Under the pieces are notes generated by a model that saw only the letters and a program-made list of their open reading frames with translations, had not been told where the DNA came from and made no database searches. The position numbers and the translations under genes were made by a program. Source: a virus (Duplodnaviria > Heunggongvirae > Uroviricota > Caudoviricetes). Taken from it: a stretch of 25,626 nucleotides of DNA. The stretch is from IMG/VR virus record IMGVR_UViG_3300027770_000048; one strand, written 5' to 3'. Positions within the stretch are counted from its first letter, which is position 1. The number at the start of each line of letters is the position of its first letter. Below, piece after piece: positions 3,439 through 24,187 of the stretch.

Positions 3439-3645
3439 ATGGCAGAAAATAAAAACGAAGAACAATTACTTTTAGAAACAAGAAAAGTAAAAGCATTAGA
3501 AAAAATAGCTAACTCATTAGACGCACTTACCATATGGTTTGAAGATATTGACAAAGATGAATGGAGTAATCGTATTCAATATTATTTATCAGAGTGGCAT
3601 AAAACTATTCCAAAATCTGCATCAGATACCGATGAGTCCGCATAA
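3439..3645 (+). CDS. Small hypothetical protein (68 aa, helical, acidic)
   Basis: Clean ORF in operon orientation with protein-like composition, preceded by a promoter-like element. Its end overlaps the start of the next gene. Confidence 0.75.
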   Translation: MAENKNEEQLLLETRKVKALEKIANSLDALTIWFEDIDKDEWSNRIQYYLSEWHKTIPKSASDTDESA

Positions 3646-7832: not shown

Positions 7833-8728
7833 TAATTAAAAATAAAAAATCGTTTATCGTTAAAAACGAAACACGAAACCACACAAATACAAAAAACTAT
7901 AACCTACTGAATGGTGATTTCATTTACGAAATAACTTATAAATCAGGAATGTTAGAAGAATTTTCTAGTAGTGAACAATGTCTAATGGGAAGGACTGGTT
8001 ATAATATGGGCATCTTTACTCAAAAAACATCTACTCTATTAGAGGAAGACTCCGTTTCATCTTCGGTAAAGTGGTGTTGGTTTAAACACGTTGGAGATGA
8101 GATACATTATGATGATATTTATTTTGGATTAAAGAGTGATGATAATAAAAATTATGAAGAATGGTGGATTAATTACATAAAAAAAATAGCACCCAATGTT
8201 ATAGATGAAAACGTCTTAATTGGTTTAGTTGCAAGATGGGGATTTTTTTATAATAATTTACAATTGGAGACAATTCAGGATAAAGAAATTAGAGAATGGG
8301 CAATTAATTTTGAAAACTCTAAAAAAGAAACTGGCTCCTACATTAGTGATATTATTAAAGTAAAAATTATAAAAACAAAGGATAAATTTACAATGTATAT
8401 TAATGATATCTTTTACAAAGATAAAGAATGCGGCCAATTATATGATTACTCAAACCAATCAATTTTTATTGGAGTAGCTAATCCATATTCTCATGAAGAG
8501 AATCAGTTTTGGTTTAGTGGTGAAATTTTTGAAGTAAAAATATATCATGATAGTATTGAAAAAGATGATAATTTATATCTTTGGTTTGATTTTGAAAATA
8601 ATTCAAAATTTAAAACATTTGACAAATCAGGAAATGGCAACCACGGCCAATTATACGAAACGGAACAATTTGTATATCAAAAGAATTTGGAATTTAATAA
8701 ATTTGCAAGACCAGCAAAAATAGTATAA
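7829..8728 (+). CDS. Stand-alone LamG/concanavalin-A-like domain protein
   Basis: MYINDI, IFIGVANP, WFSGEIFEVKIY, LWFDFE and DKSGNGNHG are LamG-like. GYNMGI parallels PGYDWGL and PGYDFAI in the LamG inserts of the two GT7 genes. Confidence 0.65.
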   Translation: MIIKNKKSFIVKNETRNHTNTKNYNLLNGDFIYEITYKSGMLEEFSSSEQCLMGRTGYNMGIFTQKTSTLLEEDSVSSSVKWCWFKHVGDEIHYDDIYFGLKSDDNKNYEEWWINYIKKIAPNVIDENVLIGLVARWGFFYNNLQLETIQDKEIREWAINFENSKKETGSYISDIIKVKIIKTKDKFTMYINDIFYKDKECGQLYDYSNQSIFIGVANPYSHEENQFWFSGEIFEVKIYHDSIEKDDNLYLWFDFENNSKFKTFDKSGNGNHGQLYETEQFVYQKNLEFNKFARPAKIV

Positions 8729-8729
8729 T

Positions 8730-9389
8730 ATGAGTTTCATTAATTTAAATTTCTTAAAAGAAAATTTTCAATATAAAAAAATTATTTTTTTTGATATTGG
8801 TAGTGCAGATTTGTGGGATACAAAAGCATTTGCAGAAACACTTCCCAATGCAGAAATTTATGCATTTGAACCATTAAAAAATCATTATGATATTTGTACC
8901 AAAAGAGCAATTGAATATGGAGTTAAATTTTTCAATTATGCAATATCTGATATAAATGATGATGTTTTATTCTATCCATCTCAAACAGAAAGAAATAATG
9001 AACAATTACAATCTAGTAGTATTTTCAAACGTAAACCAAATAGTAATATAATATATGGAGAACCATATTTGGTTAAATCGGTAACAATAGAAACATTTTG
9101 TAATGATAATAATATATCTCCCGATTTTATACATATAGATGTAGAAGGTGCGGAATATAATGTATTTAAAAAATTAGGAAATTATAGACCATCCGCAATA
9201 TGGATTGAAATGATTGGTTTTAGATATTATGAAAATGGCCGAAATATTGATAGTTTTGTACATGAAATTGATTATGAATTGGATACGTTATTAAAAAGTT
9301 ATGGATATGAAATTTTTTTTGAAGGCGAAAGTGATTTTCTTTACTTACACAAAAACGCCGAATTAAAAAATAAAAATTATAAAAATTAG
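8730..9389 (+). CDS. FkbM-family methyltransferase
   Basis: FFDIGS, IYAFEP, TIETFC...PDFIHIDVEGAEYNV. Confidence 0.85.
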   Translation: MSFINLNFLKENFQYKKIIFFDIGSADLWDTKAFAETLPNAEIYAFEPLKNHYDICTKRAIEYGVKFFNYAISDINDDVLFYPSQTERNNEQLQSSSIFKRKPNSNIIYGEPYLVKSVTIETFCNDNNISPDFIHIDVEGAEYNVFKKLGNYRPSAIWIEMIGFRYYENGRNIDSFVHEIDYELDTLLKSYGYEIFFEGESDFLYLHKNAELKNKNYKN

Positions 9390-9393
9390 ATAT

Positions 9394-10839
9394 ATGACAG
9401 ATGAGTTACAAAAATGGAGAGATAAAAATTTGAATAGTATAAGTTGTACTTTTTGTGCAGCAAAATGGTATAATGCCAGTTTACATTTAGGACATGGTTA
9501 TACCAATTCGTGTCATTTACCATTGCCCCATCCAATTGATTTAGAAGAAATAAAAACAAATCCATCAGCATTACATAATACTAAGCATAAAAAAGAAATG
9601 CGTAGAATGATGTTAACAGGCATCAAACCGGCCGAATGTTCATATTGTTGGAAAATAGAAGATATAGGTAGAAATAATGTATCCGATAGAGTATATAAGA
9701 GTAGTATTTATAGTGAAGAAGACATTGCAGCATTACAACATATTCCATGGGATGCCGATATACCATTAAAAACCGTTGAAATTAGCTTTGATAGGACTTG
9801 TAATTTTGCATGTTCATATTGTAATGCGGGATATAGTACAACTTGGGGTAAAGAAATTCAACAACACGGCCCTTATCAAAAATTTAAAACAGGAAGTGCA
9901 GGTGCATATCAATCCGATGGTTCTTGGTCTGAACAATTTGGTAAACATAATGAGAATAATCCATATGTAAAGGCATTTTTAGAATGGTGGCCAGAATTAT
10001 CACAAACGTTACAAGAGGTAAGAGTTACCGGTGGTGAACCATCACAAAGTCATAATTTTTGGGATTTTATAGAAATAATGAAAAAATATCCATCCAAAAA
10101 TTTAAGAATGGCCGTAAATTCTAATTTAGGAGTTAATGATAAATCTTTACAAAGATTAATAGATATAACATATGAATTGGATATTAAACAATTTGATTTA
10201 TATACTTCAAATGAATCTTTCGGTAAACATGCAGAATATATTAGAGATGGATTACATTATGATACTTGGAGAGCCAATGTAGTTAAATTTATTGAACAAG
10301 CTAACCCTGAAAAATTTAGAGCATTAACAATAATGATGACAATAAATAGTTTATCTTTATTTAGTATAGTTGAATTTTTAGAAGATATGAAAATTTTAAA
10401 GATAAAATATGGTCACCATAGACCAAACGTTGATTTAAATATCTTAAGATGGCCATCGTTTATGTCTCCATTAGTATTACCTGATGAAATAAAAATGATA
10501 CTACATACTAAATTAAAAAATTGGTATGAAGATAATAAAGATAGTAATTTATTTAATTCAGGAGAAAAAGCTCAATTAGAAAGATTGATTGATTATATAG
10601 AAGTTGTAAAAAGAGGACACAATCGCACCGAATTGAATATGGATTTACAATTCCACGATTTTAAGAGTTTTTATACTCAATATGATATTCGTAGAAATAA
10701 AAACTTTGTGGAAACATTTCCTGAATTAACTGATTGGTATAATTCTATTGAAATAGACCACACAATTAAACCAATTAGAATGCATGATGGAAAATTGGGA
10801 AACTGGGAAACGGGTGAATACATTACAGACACAAAATAA
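9394..10839 (+). CDS. Second radical SAM protein with an N-terminal twitch domain
   Basis: CNFACSYC and VTGGEP. N-terminal CAAKW...SCHLP...CSYCW. C-terminal YDIRRNKNFVETFPEL. Clearly paralogous to 6444-7832. Confidence 0.92.
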   Translation: MTDELQKWRDKNLNSISCTFCAAKWYNASLHLGHGYTNSCHLPLPHPIDLEEIKTNPSALHNTKHKKEMRRMMLTGIKPAECSYCWKIEDIGRNNVSDRVYKSSIYSEEDIAALQHIPWDADIPLKTVEISFDRTCNFACSYCNAGYSTTWGKEIQQHGPYQKFKTGSAGAYQSDGSWSEQFGKHNENNPYVKAFLEWWPELSQTLQEVRVTGGEPSQSHNFWDFIEIMKKYPSKNLRMAVNSNLGVNDKSLQRLIDITYELDIKQFDLYTSNESFGKHAEYIRDGLHYDTWRANVVKFIEQANPEKFRALTIMMTINSLSLFSIVEFLEDMKILKIKYGHHRPNVDLNILRWPSFMSPLVLPDEIKMILHTKLKNWYEDNKDSNLFNSGEKAQLERLIDYIEVVKRGHNRTELNMDLQFHDFKSFYTQYDIRRNKNFVETFPELTDWYNSIEIDHTIKPIRMHDGKLGNWETGEYITDTK

Positions 10840-10843
10840 TAAT

Positions 10844-11776
10844 ATGAAAAAAATATTGATAACAGGCTGCAGTGGCCTAGTAGGAATACATTTAGTAAAA
10901 AAATGTTTAAAGCTGGGGTATAATGTGATTGGAGTTGATTTACGATATTCAAATAATTTACCAGTATCAGATAATTTTACCTTTTACGAATTAGATTTAA
11001 CAATTGGTGAAAATCTTAAAAATTTGTTTTTTTTTGAAACCCCTGATGCAGTATTTAATGCATTTGGTGTCAAAGGTTCTCCAATGAGGGCAAAAAATGA
11101 ACCTGTTGATTTTTTATATCCGTCTTTTAAAATTAATACTGAAATTATAAACCAATGTGCCCAAATGAATATTTGGTTAGTATTTGTAAGTTCAGTTGGT
11201 GTCTATGCACCAGCAGAATCTTTTGTTGAAGATAGTGTGTGGAAAACATTACCTGGTGAAGCTGATTGGTTTCCTGCTTGGAGTAAAAGAATGGGTGAAA
11301 TTTTATTAGAAGCGTGTAAAATACAATACAAATATGAAAAATATGCAATAATTAGACCAGCTAATATTTTCGGAGAATATGATGATTTTAGTGGAAAGGG
11401 AACAGTAATTGCATCTACAATTAAAAAAGTATATGACGCCACCGATTCCATTGAAGCATGGGGAGATGGTACACCAATTAGAGATTTTGTTTATGCGGGG
11501 GATGTTGCTAATGCCATTATTCAATTATATGAAAATAAGATACACGATGTTGTTAACTTCGGTACAGGTGAAGAAATTTCCATAAAAGATATGATTGAAA
11601 TGGTTATTAAAATTAGTGGTAAAGAGATATATATAAATTGGGATACTACAAAACCCAATGGTGACTTAAAAAGATTAATGGATGTTACAAAACAAAAAAA
11701 ATATAATTTATTACCTGAGATTTCGTTGTTGGAGTCTATAAAAAAAGTTTATGAATATTACTCAAACAAAAAATAA
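10844..11776 (+). CDS. NDP-sugar epimerase/reductase-like extended SDR (GDP-fucose synthase-like) lacking the catalytic Tyr; start revised from 10784 to 10844
   Basis: MKKILITGCSGLVG (GxxGxxG), RPANIFG, WGDGTPIRDFVYAGD, WDTTKPNG. The YxxxK position reads PAWSK (11273-11287). Confidence 0.88.
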   Translation: MKKILITGCSGLVGIHLVKKCLKLGYNVIGVDLRYSNNLPVSDNFTFYELDLTIGENLKNLFFFETPDAVFNAFGVKGSPMRAKNEPVDFLYPSFKINTEIINQCAQMNIWLVFVSSVGVYAPAESFVEDSVWKTLPGEADWFPAWSKRMGEILLEACKIQYKYEKYAIIRPANIFGEYDDFSGKGTVIASTIKKVYDATDSIEAWGDGTPIRDFVYAGDVANAIIQLYENKIHDVVNFGTGEEISIKDMIEMVIKISGKEIYINWDTTKPNGDLKRLMDVTKQKKYNLLPEISLLESIKKVYEYYSNKK

Positions 11777-12740
11777 AGATTCAAAAATCCTTATAACAGG
11801 TGGGTCTGGTTTGGTTGGACAAAATTTAACAAATCGATTACACAAAGAAGGTTACACAAACATTAGAGTTAATTTACACAAAAGAGGCGTGAGAAATACA
11901 ATCGAAAGTGTAGAATATACACACTTCGATTTACAAACATACGATGGATGTTTGAATGCAACCAAAGATGTGGATGTAGTATATCATTGTGCAGCAAGTA
12001 CCTCCAACGCTGTGGATACGGTTGTTGACCCGTTAGCACATGTTACACCAAATGTAGCAATGAATAATTTTTTAATTGATGCCAGTTGGAGAAATAAAGT
12101 TCAACATTATATTTTCTTATCATCTAATACTGTATATCCACCTAAAGGAGATACACCGGTAGTTGAAACCGATTTTCTATTTGATGAACCTTATCCAGTA
12201 TATTTTCCAGTTGGTTGGATGAAACGATATGCAGAAGTTCAATGTGAATTATATGCAAAGTATTTACCTGTTAAAATGAAATGTACAGTTATTAGACCTG
12301 CAAATTTATTTGGCCCACATGATAAATATGATTTTGATAAATGTCATGTAACACCCGCAACAATTAGAAAAGTAGCAGATAAAATGAATCCAATTCCTGT
12401 ATGGGGAGATGGAACCGAATTAAGAGATTTACTTTATATTGAAGATTTTTGTGAAGCATTGCAAATTGTAATGGAAAAAGAAACTGAAAATTATCAAATA
12501 TATAATATCGGATGTAATGAAGTTTATTCAATTTTAGATGTATTAGATAAAATGAAGAAAATTGCAAACTACGATGCTCCAATAGAATTCATAAAGGGTA
12601 AACCATCGATGATTCCTACACGTAAAATCGATTCAAATAAGATTTATGATAAGTTGGGTTGGAAAGCAACTACATCCTTAGAAGATGGTTTAAAATTAGC
12701 TTATGAATGGTATTTAGAACACAAAGAAGAATTTAATTAG
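11751..12740 (+). CDS. Second GDP-fucose synthase-like extended SDR lacking the catalytic Tyr
   Basis: ILITGGSGLVG, RPANLFGPHDKYD, HVTPA, WGDGTELRDLLYIED. The YxxxK position reads VGWMK (12210-12224). Confidence 0.88.
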   Translation: MNITQTKNKDSKILITGGSGLVGQNLTNRLHKEGYTNIRVNLHKRGVRNTIESVEYTHFDLQTYDGCLNATKDVDVVYHCAASTSNAVDTVVDPLAHVTPNVAMNNFLIDASWRNKVQHYIFLSSNTVYPPKGDTPVVETDFLFDEPYPVYFPVGWMKRYAEVQCELYAKYLPVKMKCTVIRPANLFGPHDKYDFDKCHVTPATIRKVADKMNPIPVWGDGTELRDLLYIEDFCEALQIVMEKETENYQIYNIGCNEVYSILDVLDKMKKIANYDAPIEFIKGKPSMIPTRKIDSNKIYDKLGWKATTSLEDGLKLAYEWYLEHKEEFN

Positions 12741-12742
12741 TT

Positions 12743-13609
12743 ATGAAAATAAAGGATGATAAAGTAATAAAGGGTATAATATTTGCAGGTTGTTCATTTA
12801 CTTGGGGACAGGGACTATATTATTATTCTAATATGTCTACACTAAAAGAACCACCTCCTGATACATATAATTGGGAATTGGTTACAGATGCACATAATAA
12901 ATTTAGAAAAACATTATACTTTCCAAGGTTAGTTGCTAATCACTTTGATACCTTTGAGGTTTCAATGATACAAAATGGTGGAGCGGAAGTAACATCATTT
13001 GAATATATTAAATGTGCACTTGGATTATTGGGCCCGTATCATCATTTGATAACCGAAACATACACATATGATGAAATAGAATATATAGTATTACAAACAT
13101 CACAACCACAACGAAATACATATCATTACGATTATACTAATTCGGATGGTAGTGTAGATAAATGTGAATTTAGAACATTTTCACCAGAAACACAGGATAA
13201 ATTTTATAAATATTTAGATGAACAAAAGAAATGTACAATCGATGAGTGGTATGCGGAACATTGCAAAGATTGGTTTCAAAAAATAAAACAAGAATTACAA
13301 TTTTATGAAAGTAAAGGAATAAAAACTTTTATACTTAATTGGGAAATCGATTATATGCCATTTTATAAAGATGATATGTGGATGAACGATAGATTGGTTA
13401 CATTTGAATACGATGGTAAACACTATGATACTATACGAACTATGATGGATGCAAATAAACAGTTACATATAAATTCAGATTATGAACATTTTGAAATCAC
13501 ACCAAAAGACCACCATCCTTCAAAAGAGTGTCATAGAATTATGGCAGATGCAATTATTAAAAAAATAAAAGAATCAAAAAATACACGTTATGAATCAAAG
13601 CTTATATAA
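12743..13609 (+). CDS. SGNH/GDSL-like hydrolase or acyltransferase (GCS variant)
   Basis: IFAGCSFTWGQG (block I) and DHHPSKECHRIMAD (block V, DxH-like). Confidence 0.62.
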   Translation: MKIKDDKVIKGIIFAGCSFTWGQGLYYYSNMSTLKEPPPDTYNWELVTDAHNKFRKTLYFPRLVANHFDTFEVSMIQNGGAEVTSFEYIKCALGLLGPYHHLITETYTYDEIEYIVLQTSQPQRNTYHYDYTNSDGSVDKCEFRTFSPETQDKFYKYLDEQKKCTIDEWYAEHCKDWFQKIKQELQFYESKGIKTFILNWEIDYMPFYKDDMWMNDRLVTFEYDGKHYDTIRTMMDANKQLHINSDYEHFEITPKDHHPSKECHRIMADAIIKKIKESKNTRYESKLI

Positions 13610-14126
13610 AGATGCACTTACCTCTGCAATGACGGAGTTGGGAAAAATGGATAATACTATCTTTATAGGACAACAATTACTTTGGCATGGAAATCCAATG
13701 AGTACAACCGTTTCAAATGTTCCAAAAGAAAAAATGATTGAAGTTCCTGTTATGGAAGAATCTCAAATGGGAATGAGTTTAGGGATGGCGATGTCCGGAA
13801 AATTTGTAATTACATTTTATCCTCGTTGGGATTTTTTAATTTGTGCAACTAATCAATTGGTAAATCATATAGATAAAATAGTTGGAATGAGTAAAGGTGA
13901 ATGGAATCCAAATATGATTATTAGAATTGGCAAAGGTTCGGATAAACCATTAGACCCAGGGCACCAACACAAAGGAAATTACATTGATGAATTTAAGTCA
14001 ATGTGTAAAAATATTGAATTTCACGATGTAAAATCAGGATATGATGTTGAATTGGCCTATAAATGTGCAATTCAAAATGGTGGAATTAATTGTATAATAG
14101 AATACCCAGAACTATATCATGTCTAA
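13590..14126 (+). CDS. ThDP-dependent enzyme beta subunit (PDH E1-beta / transketolase pyrimidine-binding domain only)
   Basis: IEVPVMEESQMGMSLGMAMSG, FLICATNQLVNH, IIRIG...PGHQH. At 178 aa it has no transketolase C-terminal domain. Confidence 0.85.
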   Translation: MNQSLYKDALTSAMTELGKMDNTIFIGQQLLWHGNPMSTTVSNVPKEKMIEVPVMEESQMGMSLGMAMSGKFVITFYPRWDFLICATNQLVNHIDKIVGMSKGEWNPNMIIRIGKGSDKPLDPGHQHKGNYIDEFKSMCKNIEFHDVKSGYDVELAYKCAIQNGGINCIIEYPELYHV

Positions 14127-14871
14127 TAATAAAAATATCTATTTAGTTATATTTGGTGCAAACGGATTTCCTAATGATTTTTCTTTAAGCCGAATTAGAT
14201 TAGAAAAAGAAGCAAGAGATACCGGTTGGTTTACTGATGTTTTTAATTATTCTGCAGATGATTTAATATCATATAACAAAAAACTAACAGGTGTTGGTGC
14301 TGGTTATTATTGGTGGAAATCGGTTGTTTGTCAAATTTCCTTAAATAAAATTAAAAAAAATGATATAATTTTATATTTAGATGCCGGTTGTAGTATAAAT
14401 ATAAAAGCTGAAAAAAGATTTTGGGAATATATACAATTATGTGATGCCGGCCCAGGGTTTGTTGGTTTTGGCGGTATCGGTGACAATCCCCCTATCGAAA
14501 AAACTTATACAAAACGAGATTTACTTATACATTTAAAGTGTGATTTACCAAAATATACGGAAACAACACAAGCAGTTGCAGGTTTATTTTTTGTTAAAAA
14601 TAATCAATTTGGAAATCATTTAATTAATGAATGGGTAGAATTAAGTATGAATGAACATTTAATAACAGACTCCATATCTATAAATCCAGAATATAGTGAA
14701 TATAAAGGACATAGACATGACCAATCAATTTTAAGTTTATTATTAAAACTTAGACTACCAAAATTAAACAATTACTTATTAGAAAGCTTAGAAGTGGCCG
14801 TAACTTTAATAGAACCATTTTGTTCAGAATGCCCATTAAAAGCCACTAGAATTAATGATTCACATTTTTAA
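14119..14871 (+). CDS. Putative GT-A nucleotide-diphospho-sugar transferase-like protein
   Basis: GYYWWK, ILYLDAGC (DxG after a hydrophobic strand) and HRHDQSILSLL, a motif set I associate with GT-like proteins in phage glycan clusters. Confidence 0.55.
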   Translation: MSNNKNIYLVIFGANGFPNDFSLSRIRLEKEARDTGWFTDVFNYSADDLISYNKKLTGVGAGYYWWKSVVCQISLNKIKKNDIILYLDAGCSINIKAEKRFWEYIQLCDAGPGFVGFGGIGDNPPIEKTYTKRDLLIHLKCDLPKYTETTQAVAGLFFVKNNQFGNHLINEWVELSMNEHLITDSISINPEYSEYKGHRHDQSILSLLLKLRLPKLNNYLLESLEVAVTLIEPFCSECPLKATRINDSHF

Positions 14872-14881
14872 AATACTATTA

Positions 14882-17440
14882 TTATATTAATTTTTGTTTA
14901 TTTACTCTCACTCCTGTTTCAAATTCATATTCATATAATCCAGTCAATTTTTTTAAAAAATCTCTATCACTTGTATCATATGTTAAATCTTTTGCTAATT
15001 TATGATTTTTTTGAAATCTTTCTTTATTGTTTTTATAAAAATCAATAAAAAATTCTTTGTTATCATTTATACGTTTAATTTCTTTAACGAATGCATATAA
15101 TCGTTCTTTGTGGTCTAATATAGTATCGTAACTATGGTCTATAACATCATCAAACCAATCAAAATTATAACGTTTTTTTATTTCATAAATGTGGTTTGGA
15201 GATGCCAGTATTAGTGGAAATTGAAATGTAACAAATGGTTTAAATGATTTTTCAGTAACGTGTATTTCATTAGTATCAAATTCCGTTTCAGTTGTAATAT
15301 TTACATAGGAATTTTTATAACTTAAATACTCATACGTTCTTCCCCAATCTACATAATCTATATTATCCTCTCTAAACCAATTTTTATCTTCTTCATAGAA
15401 ACTTTTCTTTTGGTCTATATTGATAAAATACACCATATCATCTATCATTTTTTCCATATCCTCATCGGATAAACACGATTGATACAATCCTATTGGATGA
15501 TTTGCATATTTTTGTTTAGCATCCCATCCATTTGCTAATGACCAATCTACATTATCCAAAAGACCATATTGTTTTAACAAAACTAATAAAGAATATCTAT
15601 GTGGTCTAATACGTCTATTATGGCATAAGAAGAATTTACCTTCTTTTTCTGTGGTATATTTTAAGTCTGGCATTGCTTCCATCATAGCTAATCCGATATG
15701 GGTTCTAACTTTTGATGTAGAATATACATTCATTTGACTATTTAATTCTGCTTTATAATCTTCTAATTTAATATTATTATTTACTATCCAAATTTGACTT
15801 TGATTTAAATTATTAAATTTAGTCCAAAAATGAACAAACTTAAAAGTATTAAAACTTTCAAATTCTTGTTCATTTGCCAAAACAACATTAAAGTTTGGAT
15901 TTTCTCGCCAACAATCTATAATCTCTTGTGGAAATGGTAAGATTCTATCTCTAATTTTATTACCTATTTGATTTGGCGTAAGTGTTACGAAATAATAAAA
16001 TTTTCTATTTGGATATTTTGCAACGGTATTAATTGGATATCGTTTAATTCTTTCTTCGGGAAATCCTAAAGACCTAACAAATGATTCTAAATTCATAAGA
16101 AATGAATCTGTGTAAATTTCTTTACAATTCATATCATATGGCTCTTGTAATGTTTCGTTCCAATTATCATAAACTAAGTGTAAATCTACATCATCAATCT
16201 CTGGCTTTACTTCACTTAATTTTTTAAAAAATTTATAATCATAATCGTTACCCCATGCCTTTAATATATTGTGATTTTTTTGAAATCTTTCTTTATTGTT
16301 TTTATAAAAATTAATAAAAAATTCTTTGTTATCATTTATACGTTTAACTTCTTCAACAAATGCGATTAATCTATCCCTATTATTTTCTATATTATCATAA
16401 CTATGATTTATAATATCATCAAAGAAATCCAATTCAGGATATGCTTTTCTAAAATATTCTAAATGATGATATGAAGCTAAAATCATTGGATATTGAAAAT
16501 AGAAAAATGGTTTAAACGATTTTTCAGTAATATGAATATCTTCTCCTACAAAATTAGTTTCGGTTGTAATATTCAAATATGAATTTTCAAAACTATTGGG
16601 TTCGTTTGGCAATCTTTGAATTTCTCTATCATCCAATCCTTCGTATTGAGTTTCATAATTACTTTTTTTAATATCAATTGAAGTAAAATATTCAATTTCA
16701 TCTGATAAATTTAATATATCTTCGGAGTTCAAAATAGAAGTAAATTGTGATTTAGCTTCTTTATCAAAAGACCATCCGTTTATCAACGACCAATTTGTAT
16801 TGTCTAAAATATTATATTTTTTTAATAAACATAATAATCCATACCGATGAATTCTTGGACTTCTATTATGACACAAAAAAAACTGATTTGGAGTTTTTAA
16901 TATTCTATATTTTACTGCAGGATATGTTCCAGAAACTGATGTAGACATTGAACGACTTGCATGCACATTTATACTTGCATTTAATTCTTGTTTATGTTCT
17001 GGTAATTTTTCACCATTATGAATAAACCAAACCTTTTTAGGATTTATTTTATGTAATTTTACTATCTTATCAAGTCTTTCTAAAGATTGTTTTGTTTCAA
17101 ACTCACACTCATTCATTATAATTAAATGTAAATTATTATTAGTTTTAATCATCCGAATTACCTCTTTATTCACAGGTAACATATTATTGGCAAAAAAACG
17201 ATTATTCCAACCATTTCTATTCCATATATGATAATAAAACATTACATCCGGATTATTTGGAACATCTGATAGTTTCCAATTTTTTATAACGGTTCTATGA
17301 TATACCGCCATTGGTTGTGTAGATAACACCCACGTATTCTCATTATCATCTTGATGAATATAATCACTTAATCTATTAGGAAGGGGTAAATCATTTACTT
17401 CATCCCAATCATCATAAACAAAATTTAAAACGTTATCCAT
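14882..17440 (-). CDS. Protein of two tandem homologous ~415-435 aa units, each with a GT10-like TEK motif (putative double glycosyltransferase)
   Basis: Unit 1: VYDDW ... FLCHNRSPRIHR ... ITTET ... HITEKSFKPF. Unit 2 (from about aa 416): VYDNW ... FLCHNRRIRPHR ... ITTET ... HVTEKSFKPF. The TEK motif recalls the GT10 donor-binding motif; the functional call is tentative. Confidence 0.55.
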   Translation of the reverse strand: MDNVLNFVYDDWDEVNDLPLPNRLSDYIHQDDNENTWVLSTQPMAVYHRTVIKNWKLSDVPNNPDVMFYYHIWNRNGWNNRFFANNMLPVNKEVIRMIKTNNNLHLIIMNECEFETKQSLERLDKIVKLHKINPKKVWFIHNGEKLPEHKQELNASINVHASRSMSTSVSGTYPAVKYRILKTPNQFFLCHNRSPRIHRYGLLCLLKKYNILDNTNWSLINGWSFDKEAKSQFTSILNSEDILNLSDEIEYFTSIDIKKSNYETQYEGLDDREIQRLPNEPNSFENSYLNITTETNFVGEDIHITEKSFKPFFYFQYPMILASYHHLEYFRKAYPELDFFDDIINHSYDNIENNRDRLIAFVEEVKRINDNKEFFINFYKNNKERFQKNHNILKAWGNDYDYKFFKKLSEVKPEIDDVDLHLVYDNWNETLQEPYDMNCKEIYTDSFLMNLESFVRSLGFPEERIKRYPINTVAKYPNRKFYYFVTLTPNQIGNKIRDRILPFPQEIIDCWRENPNFNVVLANEQEFESFNTFKFVHFWTKFNNLNQSQIWIVNNNIKLEDYKAELNSQMNVYSTSKVRTHIGLAMMEAMPDLKYTTEKEGKFFLCHNRRIRPHRYSLLVLLKQYGLLDNVDWSLANGWDAKQKYANHPIGLYQSCLSDEDMEKMIDDMVYFINIDQKKSFYEEDKNWFREDNIDYVDWGRTYEYLSYKNSYVNITTETEFDTNEIHVTEKSFKPFVTFQFPLILASPNHIYEIKKRYNFDWFDDVIDHSYDTILDHKERLYAFVKEIKRINDNKEFFIDFYKNNKERFQKNHKLAKDLTYDTSDRDFLKKLTGLYEYEFETGVRVNKQKLI
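15003..15094. repeat. 92-bp direct repeat, copy 1 (in unit 2 of the 852-aa gene)
   Basis: Matches 16272-16363 at 88/92 nt by manual comparison; offset 1269 nt (423 codons). Confidence 0.9.
16272..16363. repeat. 92-bp direct repeat, copy 2 (in unit 1 of the 852-aa gene)
   Basis: Matches 15003-15094 with 4 substitutions. Encodes AFVEEVKRINDNKEFFINFYKNNKERFQKNH versus AFVKEIKRINDNKEFFIDFYKNNKERFQKNH. Confidence 0.9.
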
Positions 17441-18057
17441 TTACCTGTTCCGTAATGCGGCCATTTATTTTTATAATTATACCAAATCACATTAGAAGGT
17501 ATTTCTCTTTTAATTCCACCCCAAGTTTCAATTGTTGGTGTATTAGTTGAAACTCCATTATCTTCGACAACAAATATTATAGGCAAATCCAAATTAGTTG
17601 CGTATTTATGCATTTCATAAAACTGACCTGTTTCAAATGCCATATCACCAATAAAACACCAAACTTTTTCATCACCACCACTTTGTTTAATTCCCATAGC
17701 TGCACCAACCGCAATTGGAATAATTGATGATACAATTGCAGATGCATAAAATTTATCTTTTTCACTAACAATTGTAATACTTCTACCTGCTAATATTTCT
17801 TCTTCTAACCATACCGGACTAATTCCTTTAATTAATGCATGATAATGAGAACGCCAAGTTGAAAATACCCAATCGGTGGATTTCATTCGTTTACCAATTT
17901 CTATTAATTGTTCCTCATTTCCTCCACTCAAATGAACTGGTCCTTTGATTTTTCCTTCTTCCCAATGTTTTACTATAAAATCTTCAAACTTAATTAAAGA
18001 TGTTATGGTTTGTTCAATATCTTTTATAATTGGATATTGTTCTAAATTTTTTATCAT
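17425..18057 (-). CDS. ThDP-dependent enzyme alpha subunit (PDH E1-alpha-like, truncated)
   Basis: GPVHLSGGNE, STWRSH, and the ThDP/Mg motif CFIGDMAFETG...FVVEDNG. It is 210 aa long and ends at WPHYGTG. Confidence 0.87.
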   Translation of the reverse strand: MIKNLEQYPIIKDIEQTITSLIKFEDFIVKHWEEGKIKGPVHLSGGNEEQLIEIGKRMKSTDWVFSTWRSHYHALIKGISPVWLEEEILAGRSITIVSEKDKFYASAIVSSIIPIAVGAAMGIKQSGGDEKVWCFIGDMAFETGQFYEMHKYATNLDLPIIFVVEDNGVSTNTPTIETWGGIKREIPSNVIWYNYKNKWPHYGTGKWITF

Positions 18058-18590
18058 CTATCTCTTTTTTGTAGTGTTGGATTATTAGAAGGCCATTCCA
18101 TTTGATATTCTGGGTCATTCCATTTAACTACACCTTGCTCATTTGCATCTACATAACCATTTTTATAAAATAAATTATAATGAAATATACAATCAGTTAA
18201 TGCGTAGTGGCCGTTTGCAAATCCAGGTGGAACTAATATTTGATTTCTATCTTTATCAGTTATCATAAAAGATTCCCACTCTCCAAAGGTAGTACTATTT
18301 TTTCTCATATCTAATACAATTAGGTAAATATCTCCAACTACGGCTTGAACTAACTTCCAAGTCTTATTATCGTAATGCAATCCTCTTAATACACCTTTAT
18401 ATGATTTTGAGAATCTACCATGTACTTCATTTCCTTCACCTATTTTTGTAATTACAGGGTGTTCACCTGAATGAAAGGTTGTAAATATTTCACCTCTATA
18501 TTCTCTATAAATTGATGGAGTATATGTTGGTACTTCTAATCCAAATTTTTTCGAAGGAGTAATTTGAAACTCATCCCATTTATTACTCAT
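18054..18590 (-). CDS. rmlC: dTDP-4-dehydrorhamnose 3,5-epimerase family (cupin)
   Basis: YRGEIF, SYKGVLRGLHY, KLVQAVVGDIY..VLDMRKNSTTFGEW, LVPPGFANG, WNDP. The nucleotide specificity is not certain. Confidence 0.9.
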   Translation of the reverse strand: MSNKWDEFQITPSKKFGLEVPTYTPSIYREYRGEIFTTFHSGEHPVITKIGEGNEVHGRFSKSYKGVLRGLHYDNKTWKLVQAVVGDIYLIVLDMRKNSTTFGEWESFMITDKDRNQILVPPGFANGHYALTDCIFHYNLFYKNGYVDANEQGVVKWNDPEYQMEWPSNNPTLQKRDR

Positions 18591-18591
18591 A

Positions 18592-19575
18592 CTATGTTTG
18601 ATTTGCGTATCCTAAAGGAAAACCATTTCTAAATTCAAAACCCATTTTTGGTACTATCATTTGATATGCCATTATAAGTTCTTTAATACCTCTATCTAAA
18701 TCCCATTGTGGCCCCCATCCTGTTGCTTCTAACTTATCGTTTGATACAATATAGTTCCTCTTATCTGGGTCCTCATAATAGTCATCGTAGACCACTGCAA
18801 AGTCCTTTACATGAGATTGTATTTTTTCTAATAATTCTTGTTTTGAAAGATTTGCATTACTCAATCCTACATTGAAAACTTCACCTTTATATTTGTCATA
18901 ATGTTGAATCATAAAACAAAAAGTAAATGCTACATCCTGTATATGAATGAAATTTCTTTTGAACGTTTTTTCAAATACAACAACATATTTGTCAGTAATT
19001 GATTTATAAACAAAATCGTTTACTAATAAGTCAGTTCTCATTCTTGACGAAACTCCAAAAACAGTTGCCAATCTAAATATGATTGCATCCGTTGAAGTTC
19101 TTAAAAAGTTTTCAGCATCACATTTAGTTTGTCCGTAAACTGATATTGGAGTAAGTGGAGATTCTTCTGTACATTCCATTTGACCGGTACTTAAACCATA
19201 TCCACTATTTGTATTTGGATATAAAATCTTTTTACCTTTTCCGTTTGTAAATTTAACAATATTAACTATTTGTTGAAAGTTAATTTCTTTTGCTAATTTT
19301 GGGTCTTGTGCACATGCAGGAAATCCTACAATTGCAGCCAATGGAATAATCACATCCGCTTCATCACAAAGTTTTTGTAATAATGATTCGTTACGAACAT
19401 CTCCATGTATAAATTTGAATTTTGACTTTGATATGTATTGTAATAACGAAGTTTGATTGAATAATAATTTATCCAAAACAACTACTTCATAACTTTGTTC
19501 TAATAGTTTTCCAACTAATACCGAACCCAAATAACCTGCACCACCTGTGATTAAAACTTTTTTATTTATATTCAT
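18592..19575 (-). CDS. NAD-dependent NDP-sugar epimerase/dehydratase (extended SDR, canonical YxxxK)
   Basis: VLITGGAGYLGS, GDVR, LAAIVG, YGQTK, FRLATVFG...MRTDLLVN, RNFIHIQDVA. Confidence 0.92.
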   Translation of the reverse strand: MNINKKVLITGGAGYLGSVLVGKLLEQSYEVVVLDKLLFNQTSLLQYISKSKFKFIHGDVRNESLLQKLCDEADVIIPLAAIVGFPACAQDPKLAKEINFQQIVNIVKFTNGKGKKILYPNTNSGYGLSTGQMECTEESPLTPISVYGQTKCDAENFLRTSTDAIIFRLATVFGVSSRMRTDLLVNDFVYKSITDKYVVVFEKTFKRNFIHIQDVAFTFCFMIQHYDKYKGEVFNVGLSNANLSKQELLEKIQSHVKDFAVVYDDYYEDPDKRNYIVSNDKLEATGWGPQWDLDRGIKELIMAYQMIVPKMGFEFRNGFPLGYANQT

Positions 19576-19595: not shown

Positions 19596-20411
19596 TTAAG
19601 GCCCAACAAATGATTGAATTGCAAACCTTTTGAATTTATTTTTAACAAGTTCAATTGAATGACCCACATTAAATTTGGTGAAATCCATTATGACGTAATT
19701 CCCATAAACTGGAATACATTTTACAGCTGACTGATTAAATTCCAAAATTTGTTGGTTATTTGTTTTAATATCTTGTCCTATTAATAATTCACCACCATCA
19801 TCATTATGATATGTAAGTGGGTCTGCCAAATAGAATACTATTACACAAGCTCTTCCTGGATTTATACCATCAAAATGCATTTCGGAAAAATCCCCAGCTT
19901 CATATAAACTATAACCAGTAGCTACTCTAAAGGTATCCTTTTTATCAAATAGTTCGGGATAAATAAGTGAAGTATGTTTTCTAATAACATCTTCAAAATA
20001 AGTATCCATATCCCGTATTTTTTGTGCTTCTGCACCTTCAAAATTTTCTAATTGTAATCTTGACCATTGTTGTGTAGTTCTAATATCTCCACCACCAGCA
20101 ATTACTTGATTAACAAAGTCTTTTCTATTATCCACACGTACATATGGTATTTCCTGTAAAAATTCCTCATCAGTTGGTACTGGTCCAGAATATTCGTTAG
20201 AATTTAAATAATTGTGAGGAGAATTCTGAGCTATAAAATTGTGTCGATAACAATACCATTTTTCTTTTTCATCTGCAGTTTGTCTAAAGTGATTAGTCCA
20301 ATATAAAAACATATCTTCTTTTATACCCGTTAAATCATTAAAAAATTCCTCGAATTTACCAATGTGGTATCCATTGTTTATCAAATTTTTATAGATTTGA
20401 TTATACATCAT
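19596..20411 (-). CDS. 2OG-Fe(II) oxygenase (prolyl 4-hydroxylase-like superfamily)
   Basis: YSLYEAGDFSEMHFDG (HxD), FYLAD...DGGEL, GHSIELV (distal His) and KRFAI (2OG-binding Arg). Confidence 0.85.
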   Translation of the reverse strand: MMYNQIYKNLINNGYHIGKFEEFFNDLTGIKEDMFLYWTNHFRQTADEKEKWYCYRHNFIAQNSPHNYLNSNEYSGPVPTDEEFLQEIPYVRVDNRKDFVNQVIAGGGDIRTTQQWSRLQLENFEGAEAQKIRDMDTYFEDVIRKHTSLIYPELFDKKDTFRVATGYSLYEAGDFSEMHFDGINPGRACVIVFYLADPLTYHNDDGGELLIGQDIKTNNQQILEFNQSAVKCIPVYGNYVIMDFTKFNVGHSIELVKNKFKRFAIQSFVGP

Positions 20412-21511: not shown

Positions 21512-24187
21512 ATGAATTCATTATTAGAAGCAAATAAACCAAAAGTTACACAATCAATAATCATTTATGGTGGTCGTTTTCAACCATTTCATAAAGGACA
21601 TTACGCAGCATACCAAAATCTAGTATCAGAATTTGGAAACGCAAATGTATATATTGGAACCTCTAACGATACATCTTCCGACAAATCTCCATTTACTTTT
21701 AATGAGAAGAAGGAAATTGCAACTAAGATGTTTGGTATACCAGCATCTAAATTTGTCAAAGTAAACAACCCTTACAGACCCGTAGAGATACTTTCTAAAT
21801 ACGATGGTAAGATTACACAATATATTGCAGCAGTAGGAGAAAAGGATGCCAGTAGGTTAAAGAGTGGATATTTCAAACCATACAAAGGTAAAGCCGGATA
21901 TGGTTATGATGAAGTTGGTTATTACTATACAATACCCGCAGAAGAAAATCCAATTAGTGGAACGGATGTTAGAAAAAAATTAGGAAGTTCAAATAAAGAG
22001 GTAGCTAAAAAGTTTTTCTTAAAAGCATATCCATCGTTTGATAAAGATGTTTTTAAAATGATTACTTCAAAATTAAATGAAAATGGTATGCCAGGTGGAA
22101 TTGGTGTTGGTTTAGTTTTACCTGGTGGATATATTAACGGAGCACCAACAGGTTCTAAAAATGAAATTATCGGTGAAATTGAAAATGAGGTAAACGAATT
22201 TATAACACAATATTTTAATGAAGGTATTTCTGAATCAAAAGAAAACTCAATAAATCACTTTGTGGAGTATGCAACTAAAAAATTAAAGTTAAAAGAAACT
22301 CCAAAAATTACTTTATTAAGTGGTAGAGAATATTCTGAAGCAAAAACCTCTTTAGGTGGGTATAATCCTATGTCTAAAGAAATATATGTTGCAATAGAAG
22401 GTAGACTAACTGCGGACATACTTAGAACTCTTGCACATGAGATGGTTCATAGAAAGCAAGATGAGATGGGTCTGGTAAAAGATGAAATCAAAGATGGTGC
22501 AACAGGTTCTCCAATTGAAAACCAAGCTCATGCAGTAGCCGGTATCTTAATGAGAAACTATGGTAAGATAAATAAACAAATATACAACGAAAGTATTAAT
22601 ATAGATGTTGATAAGGGTGATACTGTATTGATGGGTAAATTTAAAAATAAAAAAGTTGTTGTAAAAGATATTGGAAAGGATGACTACGGAATGCCAACAA
22701 TTAATGGTAAGAAAGCAGCAACATTTAGATTGGGTGATAAAGGACAAAATATATTTAAAAAAGATGAAAATATTGATGAAATGAAATCTACGGATATTCA
22801 TTTTATTAATATTATAAAAATGTATAGAGATTCAACATTTAGAAAAAGAATAAATGCATATCTTTTTGGAAACCCTAATAAAAATAATCCTAATGCAGTA
22901 GCCAGAGAGCTTAGCAATATGAATTATGATGAGATAACTCAAATGGAAAAAGAATTAAATCTTAAACCAGATTTGAATGAATCATTACTATTAGAAGGTG
23001 GAGCATATGGACATATGGCACACCCATTCGATGATATGGATTTAACTTTTGGTGATTTAAAAGATATTATTTCAAAAGCACTTAATGGTGATTTAGGAGT
23101 AGTTAGAGAAAAAACAGATGGCCAAGCTTTAGCAATAAGTTGGAAAAATGGTAGATTGATTGCAGCGAGAAATAAAGGTAATTTAGCAAACGCAGGAGCA
23201 AACGCAATGGGAATAGAGGATGTTGCATCAAAGTTTGGTGGTAGAGGGGGTTTAACAGATGCATACAATTTTGCAATGAAAGATTTATCTGCAGCAATAA
23301 GTGGTTTATCTGATGCACAAAGAAAAAAAATATTCAACGAAGGAAAGTGTTTTATGAATTTGGAAGTAATATGGCCTACATCGGTTAATGTTATTCCTTA
23401 TGGTCAAGCTCTTTTAGTTTTTCATAATACAACTTGTTACGATGAAAAGGGTGTGGCAATTGGAGCAGATGGTGGAGCAGCGGGAACTTTAGCAGGAATG
23501 ATTAAGCAAGTCAACGCAGATGTTCAATCTAAATACACAATACAAGGCCCTCCAATAACTGAAATACCAAAATCGGAAGATTTGAGTTCTAAACAAGGTA
23601 AATATCTTTCAAAACTTTCAAAATTACAATCTGAATTTGGATTAAAAGATTCGGATAATGTTGCAGATTATCATCAAAGTTGGTGGGATTGGTGGATTAC
23701 ATCAAACGCACCTATTAAGGTTGACAAAATTACAAAAGAAGCATTGATTAGAAGATGGGCATTTGGTGATAAAGTATTTAGATTAAATACAATATCAAAT
23801 TTAGAATTACAAAAGTGGGCAATTGACCATGATAAAGTAAATGTTGCAAAACAACAAAAAGATAATATTAAACCATTTGAGGAAATATTTTTAGGTGTAG
23901 GTGCAGATGTATTAGAATTTGTTGGAAGTGTATTAACTGTACATCCTGAAAAGGCAATTCGTGCAATGAAACAAAAATTTGCATCGGTTGCATCACAAGT
24001 TAGAAGTGGTGGTAATCCTGCACAAATACAAAAATTAAAATCAGAATTAGAAAGATTAAATAAATTAGGTGGTATTGAAAAGATAGTAGCAAATGAAGGA
24101 TTGGTATTTGTTTATAATGGTAAAACATATAAACTTACAGGTACTTTTGCACCATTAAATCAGATACTTGGTATTTTTTACTCTTAA
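21512..24187 (+). CDS. Multidomain phage protein: HIGH-family nucleotidyltransferase + HExxH zincin-like domain + two small domains + ligase-like (KxDG) C-terminal domain
   Basis: YGGRFQPFHKGH (HKGH at 21590-21601) and ISGTDVRK; AHEMVH (22436-22450) followed by IENQA; EGGAYGHMAHPFD, REKTDG (K at 23111), NLEV, EGLV (from 24095) and YKL. Confidence 0.82.
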   Translation: MNSLLEANKPKVTQSIIIYGGRFQPFHKGHYAAYQNLVSEFGNANVYIGTSNDTSSDKSPFTFNEKKEIATKMFGIPASKFVKVNNPYRPVEILSKYDGKITQYIAAVGEKDASRLKSGYFKPYKGKAGYGYDEVGYYYTIPAEENPISGTDVRKKLGSSNKEVAKKFFLKAYPSFDKDVFKMITSKLNENGMPGGIGVGLVLPGGYINGAPTGSKNEIIGEIENEVNEFITQYFNEGISESKENSINHFVEYATKKLKLKETPKITLLSGREYSEAKTSLGGYNPMSKEIYVAIEGRLTADILRTLAHEMVHRKQDEMGLVKDEIKDGATGSPIENQAHAVAGILMRNYGKINKQIYNESINIDVDKGDTVLMGKFKNKKVVVKDIGKDDYGMPTINGKKAATFRLGDKGQNIFKKDENIDEMKSTDIHFINIIKMYRDSTFRKRINAYLFGNPNKNNPNAVARELSNMNYDEITQMEKELNLKPDLNESLLLEGGAYGHMAHPFDDMDLTFGDLKDIISKALNGDLGVVREKTDGQALAISWKNGRLIAARNKGNLANAGANAMGIEDVASKFGGRGGLTDAYNFAMKDLSAAISGLSDAQRKKIFNEGKCFMNLEVIWPTSVNVIPYGQALLVFHNTTCYDEKGVAIGADGGAAGTLAGMIKQVNADVQSKYTIQGPPITEIPKSEDLSSKQGKYLSKLSKLQSEFGLKDSDNVADYHQSWWDWWITSNAPIKVDKITKEALIRRWAFGDKVFRLNTISNLELQKWAIDHDKVNVAKQQKDNIKPFEEIFLGVGADVLEFVGSVLTVHPEKAIRAMKQKFASVASQVRSGGNPAQIQKLKSELERLNKLGGIEKIVANEGLVFVYNGKTYKLTGTFAPLNQILGIFYS

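Follow-up and report, generated by a model that had tools for sequence, protein, structure and literature searches.

The virus record IMGVR_UViG_3300027770_000048 (IMG/VR; Caudoviricetes) comprises 25,626 nucleotides, which are referred to as a whole as the window. It has a GC content of around 28% and consists of a run of glycan-biosynthesis genes (24 open reading frames, or ORFs, as judged from the ORF list and Pfam). Two of these genes encode short proteins that resemble the alpha and the beta subunit of E1 enzymes of the pyruvate and branched-chain dehydrogenases. The two proteins very probably form one enzyme dependent on thiamine diphosphate (ThDP), and it is likely that this enzyme acts in a nucleotide-sugar pathway. 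As for the reaction itself, by analogy with known sugar-branching enzymes, we see about an even chance that the pair is a free-standing, minimal E1-type carboligase, which would add a two-carbon (C2) unit derived from pyruvate to a keto-sugar carried on a nucleoside diphosphate (NDP). The coordinates of the two genes and of their neighbors are collected in Table 1.

The truncation of the subunits is best seen in their folds. An AlphaFold2 model of beta, based on a family alignment (mean predicted local distance difference test, pLDDT, 93.7), superposes over residues 1–178 on residues 0–178 of human E1-beta, a protein of 330 amino acids (Z 23.3, root-mean-square deviation 2.1 Å, 173 residues aligned). 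Since beta covers only this part of E1-beta, the C-terminal domain, which is transketolase-C-like and binds the E2 core, is absent. In the case of alpha, the Pfam E1_dh match is confined to profile positions 6–170 of 300, and the model obtained in the same way (pLDDT 91) superposes over residues 6–205 on residues 20–268 of human E1-alpha (Z 19.3, root-mean-square deviation 2.3 Å, 194 residues aligned). Further superpositions place residues 1–207 on residues 33–299 of the E1-alpha of branched-chain 2-oxo acid dehydrogenase (BCKDH) and residues 1–205 on residues 22–276 of Geobacillus E1-alpha. Alpha therefore ends at around residue 268 of the 362-residue human chain (1ni4_A), and some 95 C-terminal residues are missing. 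The catalytic histidine of E1-alpha is H263 in the human enzyme, H291 in BCKDH, and H271 in Geobacillus; the ends of the matched chains lie a few residues past this histidine, so that alpha stops just after the active-site His loop. Judging from these models, the E2-binding domain of beta and the tail of alpha past the His loop are lost, and with them would go all the parts required for docking to an E2 core. The first-pass annotation, made from the sequence of the window, had described the subunits as much shorter than typical E1 subunits, and the fold matches bear this out: beta corresponds to the pyrimidine-binding domain alone, and alpha ends at the His loop.

What has been kept is the cofactor site. 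In a 30-member alignment of alpha, the pattern P200-H201-x-G203 is invariant, and nearly all members end 7–9 residues later. The ThDP/Mg motif of alpha reads G137-D138-M139 ... E165-D166-N167, of which G137, M139, E165, and N167 are invariant in the same alignment, as are H42, R69, and H71. In beta, the invariant residues are E51, E56, R79, Q126, and H127 (the alignments for the two subunits contain 30–34 diverse members), and E56 aligns to the glutamate of the "P-L-x-E" loop in Thermus and Pyrobaculum E1-beta, which is the cofactor-activating residue. This invariance of the cofactor residues in both subunits means that the site looks intact. The short lengths are equally well conserved. Alpha has 4301 homologues at E ≤ 1e-5, and the best 120 of these have 201–211 amino acids and are 72–95% identical to it; in an exhaustive search with beta at E ≤ 1e-10, the matches fell into 270 representative clusters (50% identity), the members of which mostly have 175–185 amino acids, with lengths around 177 predominating. 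The possibility, raised at the outset, that the truncations are sporadic frameshifts absent from relatives is thus contradicted by the retention of both the lengths and the two end points in thousands of homologues.

That alpha and beta belong to one enzyme is indicated by several types of observation. Both match the same protein family, phrog_34187 (405 positions; function listed as unknown), alpha over positions 5–200 (6e-49) and beta over positions 236–401 (3.2e-27). Fusions of alpha to beta exist in the cyanophages S-SM2 and P-TIM68 and also in two other proteins (P0148 and P0203); the S-SM2 fusion, SSM2_198, is labelled "transketolase central region-containing protein", and both cyanophage fusions are located in sugar clusters along with a phosphoheptose isomerase, a carbohydrate kinase, and nucleotidyltransferases. 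In 78 of 80 cellular loci, the gene immediately upstream of beta is alpha, the remaining two loci being cut by contig ends, and none of the phage loci and records that were checked lacks beta. A model of the complex, which is a check that the first-pass annotation had proposed, was made for alpha with beta and gave a score of 0.85, compared to 0.02 for the best of three controls. The score of 0.85 is reached by 58 of 80 solved complexes and by 2 of 110 mismatched pairs, counts that are rough because our own alignments were used. The runs agree in at least 97% of the contacts, the pLDDT of the partners is at least 89, and at the modelled interface the beta loop carrying E56 meets the ThDP-motif region of alpha. 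Since E1 alpha/beta complexes have already been solved, this result reflects likeness to E1 rather than an independent proof of binding. By analogy with E1 enzymes, the two proteins most likely assemble as a heteromer of the alpha2beta2 type, which would represent the catalytic core of an E1-type enzyme of the alpha-keto acid dehydrogenase 2 superfamily. The initial description of the system as a minimal two-subunit ThDP enzyme is hence in agreement with the fusions, the adjacency in cells, the shared PHROG, and the complex model.

The evidence for a sugar pathway comes from the neighborhood of the pair, which lies among sugar genes in each of over 110 loci. When one genome per prokaryotic species was scanned with a 12-sequence beta alignment as the query, 300 confirmed beta relatives were obtained, from which 80 loci were kept. 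The carriers include Verrucomicrobiota, Saccharibacteria and other bacteria of the Candidate Phyla Radiation (CPR), Pelagibacteraceae, Synechococcus, Prochlorococcus, Nitrospira, Planctomycetota, Herbaspirillum isolates, and DPANN archaea. The short E1-type family is not phage-specific, being present in the genomes of at least 300 cellular species. The pair is constantly accompanied in phages by an RmlC-like epimerase, a short-chain dehydrogenase/reductase (SDR) with a YxxxK motif, two SDRs that resemble GDP-fucose synthase (Fcl) and lack the catalytic tyrosine, a 2-oxoglutarate (2OG) oxygenase, and one or two copies of a domain with an HxTEK motif.

In cells, the companions were counted in the 37 loci of at least 18 kb. 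A DegT-family protein is present in 33 of these, one of the B12-radical-SAM type in 30, and a GHMP kinase and a nucleotidyltransferase in 28 each; SDRs accompany the pair in cells as well. The DegT-family neighbor is ColD-like (best PDB match 2gms, 3.9e-52) and has a histidine at the position of His188 of ColD. The kinase and the transferase match HddA and HddC best, though below the curated cut-offs, and GmhA or GmhB is found near the pair in only 7–8 of the 37 loci; the Herbaspirillum lusitanum cluster also has GmhA- and GmhB-like genes. An L-2-hydroxyglutarate oxidase (above the NCBIfam cut-off; for example, at 17160–18515 of locus L095) lies near the cassette in 19 of the 80 cellular loci. 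The C4-dehydrogenase of Campylobacter yields L-2-hydroxyglutarate, and C. jejuni makes GDP-4-keto and 3-deoxy-4-keto heptoses with the same enzyme set but no ThDP enzyme (PMC10680097). This suggests that the oxidase recycles the L-2-hydroxyglutarate from an NDP-heptose C4-dehydrogenase of the Cj1427 type. The sugar on which the pair acts may be a hexose, or a heptose as in the cellular relatives. The original proposal of a branched 6-deoxyhexose therefore holds as far as the nucleotide-sugar context is concerned, but going by the context in cells and cyanophages, an NDP-heptose derivative is indicated just as strongly as a 6-deoxyhexose.

A separate observation concerns the DegT-family proteins themselves: in the one encoded at 10597–11799 of locus L107, and in its homologues, a histidine replaces the Schiff-base lysine, and the protein would be a ColD-like 3-dehydratase and not an aminotransferase.

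How the pair might work is suggested by enzymes of the same general type. In the pathways to aldgamycin, avilamycin, paulomycin, and kibdelomycin, keto-sugars receive a C2 branch from pyruvate through enzymes of the E1 alpha/beta type, and for KbDH-alpha/beta this branching has been demonstrated in vitro (PMC12247030; PMC4425429; PMC4802897). AviB1/B2 act together with a non-haem iron oxygenase, AviO2 (PMC4425429), and the acceptor of another branching enzyme, YerE, is a 3-deoxy-4-keto NDP-sugar (PMC9306805). By analogy, we infer that pyruvate would be the donor, a keto-sugar the acceptor, and a branched sugar the product. In such a pathway, an SDR would oxidize or dehydrate an NDP-sugar to give a 4-keto intermediate, which the RmlC-like cupin would epimerize; the ThDP enzyme would then decarboxylate pyruvate to hydroxyethylidene-ThDP and transfer the C2 unit to the sugar carbonyl so as to create an acetyl or 1-hydroxyethyl branch. 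The product might be tailored by the neighboring SDR-like, oxygenase, and methyltransferase enzymes before its transfer by the neighboring glycosyltransferase-like proteins. A bolder version, which we hold to be doubtful, is that the pair is the smallest natural E1-type ThDP carboligase, with a core of around 390 amino acids in two chains, and that it represents a large family that branches or extends surface-glycan sugars of the NDP-heptose type, with the phage SDRs that lack the tyrosine as possible non-redox partners that hold the nucleotide sugar. In this version, the carriers would be microbes that are abundant in the environment (SAR11, picocyanobacteria, Verrucomicrobiota, Nitrospira, CPR bacteria, and DPANN archaea) together with T4-like phages infecting some of these.

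To our knowledge, the only E1-type sugar-branching enzymes described so far are full-length pairs from a few antibiotic pathways of actinomycetes. AviB1/AviB2, Pau11/Pau12 (Plm8/Plm9), AlmDI/DII, and KbDH-alpha/beta are, like the pair in the window, two-subunit E1-like ThDP enzymes of the alpha-keto acid dehydrogenase 2 superfamily in a deoxysugar pathway without E2 or E3, and they too are surrounded by 4-keto sugar genes (a dehydratase or oxidase, a 3,5-epimerase, and reductases). The non-haem iron oxygenase AviO2 lies beside AviB1/B2, and here a 2OG oxygenase heads the alpha operon. The differences are that the actinomycete pairs are adjacent and belong to Gram-positive secondary-metabolite clusters, whereas those here belong to a T4-like phage and are convergent and 3.3 kb apart; the cellular members of the short family, unlike the actinomycete antibiotic clusters, are in surface-glycan, GDP-heptose-like cassettes. 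YerE, ErwE, and MygE resemble the proposed enzyme in the reaction, a ThDP carboligation of a 2-oxo-acid unit onto a 3-deoxy-4-keto NDP-sugar (CDP-3,6-dideoxy-4-keto-glucose), and YerE and the cellular relatives of the pair have in common the co-occurrence of a C3-dehydratase. However, these three enzymes belong to another ThDP superfamily, which is acetolactate synthase (ALS)-like, and consist of a single chain of around 570 amino acids with TPP_enzyme_N/M/C domains and FAD. The pyruvate and branched-chain E1 enzymes (alpha2beta2) share with the pair the fold, the ThDP motif, the activating glutamate, both His loops, and the predicted interface, but the pair has no E2-binding domain, phosphorylation-loop tail, or E2/E3, and its context is one of sugar genes. 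The S-SM2 and P-TIM68 fusions belong to the same family (41–42% identity to alpha and 33–34% to beta) and lie in a sugar cluster with heptose genes; they are one polypeptide of around 380–400 amino acids, while here two separate genes occupy opposite strands. ThDP pairs of the E1-like kind are already known from deoxysugar branching; the minimal form, the wide spread, and the heptose-type cassette are apparently undescribed in the literature searched, in which nothing relevant was found on the cyanophage "transketolase central region" protein or on heptose with thiamine.

If the proposed function is correct, the occurrence of a conserved minimal form in hundreds of species of bacteria and archaea and in large phages of marine and fresh waters would mean that branched or chain-extended sugars are far commoner in environmental surface glycans than known structures suggest. 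There would also be a rule for annotation, namely, that a short E1 alpha and a short E1 beta beside NDP-sugar genes are not a pyruvate dehydrogenase (PDH), and a very small carboligase scaffold would be available for biocatalysis.

Related ThDP enzymes can be found together in one place. In a single-amplified genome (SAG) of the Pelagibacteraceae (locus L119, the same as L108), three ThDP enzymes lie side by side in one glycan cluster at 4433–10537: a YerE/ALS-like protein of 566 amino acids, an E1-like pair of intermediate length (279 and 305 amino acids), and a minimal pair (200 and 178 amino acids), with a B12-radical-SAM gene beside them.

Several points weigh against the carboligase function. 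It is carried over by analogy from full-length branching enzymes to a minimal form: the known branching subunits Pau11 and Pau12 have 325 and 345 amino acids (PMC4425429), compared to the 210 and 178 of alpha and beta. The metal motif, GDM, reads GEM or GGM in some cellular members. Confidence in the model of alpha is low for its last nine residues, and the alignment of alpha by hidden Markov model to solved E1-alpha chains ends at around residue 170, short of the His loop, so that the equivalence of the histidine depends on the structural ranges and the motif pattern. Finally, the ColD-like dehydratase, a companion of the pair in cells, is present in only 1 of 36 phage loci, and its absence from the phage clusters means that the acceptor may differ between phages and cells.

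The main rival is other ThDP chemistry on the same sugars. Here, the same alpha/beta enzyme in the same pathway would carry out a hydroxyacetyl transfer, a chain extension at a terminal aldehyde (giving an octose or nonose), or the decarboxylation of a 2-keto acid borne by the sugar; such chemistry has a smaller but real chance of being the right answer. The fold family does include DXS and transketolase (Z 13–14), transketolases have been proposed to install the hydroxyacetyl branches of miharamycin and amipurimycin (PMC12247030), and the B12-radical-SAM genes in so many of the long cellular loci amount to further C–C chemistry in the cassette. Moreover, heptose genes lie beside the pair in cells and cyanophages, and the side chain of a heptose offers other carbonyl positions. 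What tells against it is that both the sequence and the fold are plainly nearest to the pyruvate and branched-chain E1 enzymes (E1_dh 1.7e-18 versus DXP_synthase_N 1.9e-6; Z 19–23 for E1 structures versus 14–18 for transketolase and DXS) and that all known E1-type sugar enzymes install pyruvate-derived C2 branches (PMC12247030). Another, improbable explanation is that the pair converts a 2-oxo acid into a small aldehyde or acyloin. Later amination, phosphorylation, or attachment of this product would then decorate the glycan with a non-sugar group, with no contact between the enzyme and a nucleotide sugar. The cassettes contain a kinase and a nucleotidyltransferase, but GmhA/GmhB so seldom that the activated molecule may be something other than a heptose, and an enzyme of the pyridoxal-phosphate type nearly always adjoins the pair. 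This last enzyme is, however, ColD-like with the dehydratase histidine and would act on NDP-4-keto sugars, the kinase and transferase have HddA and HddC as their best matches, and the phage alpha is translationally coupled to an NDP-keto-sugar epimerase.

It could also be argued from the extreme truncation that the pair is a remnant without catalytic activity, which would be retained for scaffolding or for the binding of sugar nucleotides, and the neighboring SDRs without the catalytic tyrosine reveal that non-canonical or inactive enzymes do occur in the cluster. We consider this very improbable given that archaea, bacteria, and phages show little or no variation in the ThDP/Mg motif, the activating glutamate, and both His loops and that both models are confident, compact folds. 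Effectively excluded is an auxiliary metabolic role in which a phage pyruvate or acetoin dehydrogenase E1 would join the E2/E3 of the host and divert its central carbon flux. The best named matches of the pair are indeed PDH E1 alpha and beta, and the mislabelling that the first-pass annotation expected from databases has taken place: the JGI name is "pyruvate dehydrogenase E1 component alpha subunit", and the S-SM2 record carries its own transketolase label. Yet the NCBIfam scores are far below the cut-offs (TIGR03182, 88.5 bits versus 393.85; NF006667, 36.3 versus 321), the E2-binding domain of beta and around 95 C-terminal residues of alpha are gone, and the setting among sugar genes recurs in more than 110 loci. 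Pfam matches to E2, E3, or lipoyl families are lacking among the 24 ORFs of the window, as had been noted at first sight, and the E2 catalytic domain (PF00198) was not found in the genomes of five related phages, four of which are at least 90% complete.

Other identities were tried and rejected. A transketolase, whole or split, was dropped on the basis of the NCBIfam transketolase match (1.7e-4), the Z values of split transketolase (14.1 and 17.6 versus 19.3 and 23.3 for E1), and the missing C-terminal domain. For a YerE-type enzyme, there was only a weak TPP_enzyme_C match on the shared motif (7.3e-6), with no TPP_enzyme_N or M domain in Pfam. A literature match in Pectobacterium was to an ordinary acetoin dehydrogenase operon. 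Erwiniose and caryophyllose were dropped as products of the cellular cassette, since both are explained by YerE-type enzymes with longer 2-oxo acids (PMC9306805).

An important question is whether the arrangement of the two genes in the window has a meaning of its own. As had been reported for this DNA, a short beta gene on the plus strand and a short alpha gene on the minus strand face each other, and both ORFs were found where expected; they are separated by 3298 bp. The start of alpha overlaps the stop of the RmlC-like gene as ATGA, which was read directly in the sequence and which agrees with the coupling first described, the SDR gene lying further upstream. The end of alpha overlaps the start of the 852-amino-acid gene, and beta overlaps its neighbors on each side, by 20 nt with the 288-amino-acid gene and by 8 nt with the 250-amino-acid gene. 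A nucleotide search of phage records with positions 13000–19000 of the window gave no match, and the proteins of the window were mapped onto 31 IMG/VR loci, 4 metagenome loci, and 2 cyanophage records. The complete relatives are T4-like phages of 198–289 kb with a Gp23 capsid gene. The two genes are fused in S-SM2 and P-TIM68, adjacent in L034 and L035, and around 1 kb apart in L009 and L022; in the majority of phages, they are co-directional and 3–12 kb apart, with Fcl-like SDR genes and others between them. Where beta fell outside the fetched flank, it was located 10.6–11.6 kb downstream on the same strand. The convergent layout exists only in the window, L007, and L008.

In a tree of alpha, rooted with a longer E1-like paralogue, the adjacent pairs of archaea and bacteria are basal, and the phage-type sequences form one group (support 91), the early branches of which have adjacent or fused genes. 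The three convergent genomes form one clade (support 99) nested among colinear ones, and the convergent layout is therefore a derived, late rearrangement. It has no mechanistic meaning. Consequently, the description of the system as by nature "split across convergent operons" does not stand: this arrangement is limited to a three-member subclade, while the norm is an adjacent pair in cells and a fusion, an adjacent pair, or one co-directional row in phages. The suggestion that alpha–beta adjacency be sought in phage relatives had a mixed outcome in that the genes are fused or adjacent in some, but co-directional and kilobases apart in most. The series in phages (fused, adjacent, pulled apart, inverted) is a clean case of the genes for the subunits of one enzyme drifting apart without either being lost.

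One adjacent pair, at 9354–10522 of locus L041 (Pelagibacteraceae SAG AG-447-E20), falls within the phage grouping, and the C-terminal motif of its alpha is of the phage type. It may be a hint as to host range, since the low GC fits SAR11, or it may be phage DNA in the SAG.

Table 1. The E1-like pair and neighboring genes of the window.
Feature	Coordinates	Strand	Description	Evidence
E1-beta-like subunit	13590..14126	+	178 amino acids; pyrimidine-binding (Pyr) domain only	Pfam Transket_pyr 2.6e-8
E1-alpha-like subunit	17425..18057	-	210 amino acids; diphosphate-binding (PP) domain	Pfam E1_dh 1.7e-18
RmlC-like cupin	18054..18590	-	NDP-4-keto-sugar 3,5-epimerase	Pfam dTDP_sugar_isom 4.9e-32
Extended SDR	18592..19575	-	intact YxxxK motif (YGQTK)	Pfam Epimerase 5.4e-34; best NCBIfam match GalE-like
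2OG-Fe(II) oxygenase	19596..20411	-	heads the leftward operon	Pfam 2OG-FeII_Oxy_4 1.1e-6
Two GDP-fucose-synthase-like (Fcl-like) SDRs	10784..12740	+	without catalytic Tyr	NCBIfam GDPFucSynFcl 2.6e-38 and 2.1e-43, both below cut-off
Conserved 288-amino-acid protein	12743..13609	+	no family assigned; directly upstream of beta	no Pfam match
250-amino-acid protein	14119..14871	+	no family assigned; downstream of beta	no Pfam or PHROG match
852-amino-acid protein	14882..17440	-	tandem duplication; two copies (42% identical) of a domain of around 400 amino acids	HxTEK motif

Taken as a whole, the window is devoted to glycans according to Pfam: besides the three extended SDRs, the RmlC-like cupin, and the 2OG oxygenase, it contains methyltransferases, two radical-SAM proteins, a cytidylyltransferase fusion, and two glycosyltransferases that are GT7-like and have LamG inserts. 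In 28 of 33 phage-type loci, the RmlC-like gene is either the immediate upstream neighbor of alpha or close to it on that side. The SDR upstream of it retains its YxxxK motif in the phage and cellular homologues and is a candidate for the C4-oxidase or 4,6-dehydratase that would produce the keto-sugar. In relatives, the 2OG oxygenase is fused to, or adjoins, the first Fcl-like SDR, as in the 546-amino-acid SDR–2OG fusion of L003.

The two Fcl-like SDRs encoded upstream of beta lack, as the first reading of the sequence had it, the catalytic tyrosine: in an alignment with the GDP-fucose synthase of E. coli (PYAIAK), the tyrosine is replaced by proline or valine (PAWSK and PVGWMK). The lysine, the Rossmann motif, and the histidine of the epimerase dyad are kept. 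Both types are conserved in essentially all phage loci of the clade and exist in a few cellular loci, and in the colinear relatives, they are located between alpha and beta.

The proteins without an assigned family provide leads only. The 288-amino-acid gene is syntenic with beta in at least 13 phage loci; in the Atlas, its product falls in viral hypothetical clusters only, with a weak GDSL share, and it is possibly SGNH/GDSL-like. The 250-amino-acid protein is 68–72% identical in the two closest relatives, L007 and L008. For the 852-amino-acid protein, the Atlas look-up likewise gave only viral hypothetical clusters along with a weak GT10 lead (score 0.79), which makes it a candidate GT10-like glycosyltransferase. 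It is homologous to the C-terminal parts of two beta fusions, P0124 and P0127 (E 1e-34 to 5e-48), and single-copy homologues of its HxTEK domain are found after alpha in relatives; the fusion of this domain to the C-terminus of short beta in some relatives indicates a functional link to the ThDP enzyme.

Two further features of the window were noted. At 21512–24187, an ORF of 891 amino acids has an N-terminal cytidylyltransferase-like domain (of the HldC/HldE-type fold) followed by some 700 residues without a Pfam match; in relatives, PfkB kinase and CTP_transf_like are encoded by genes of their own, in the manner of the ADP-heptose route. At 3539–6450, there are two tandem GT7 (beta-1,4-galactosyltransferase-like) genes, each with a Laminin_G_3/LamG-like segment, and these genes are kept upstream of the sugar cassette in many relatives.

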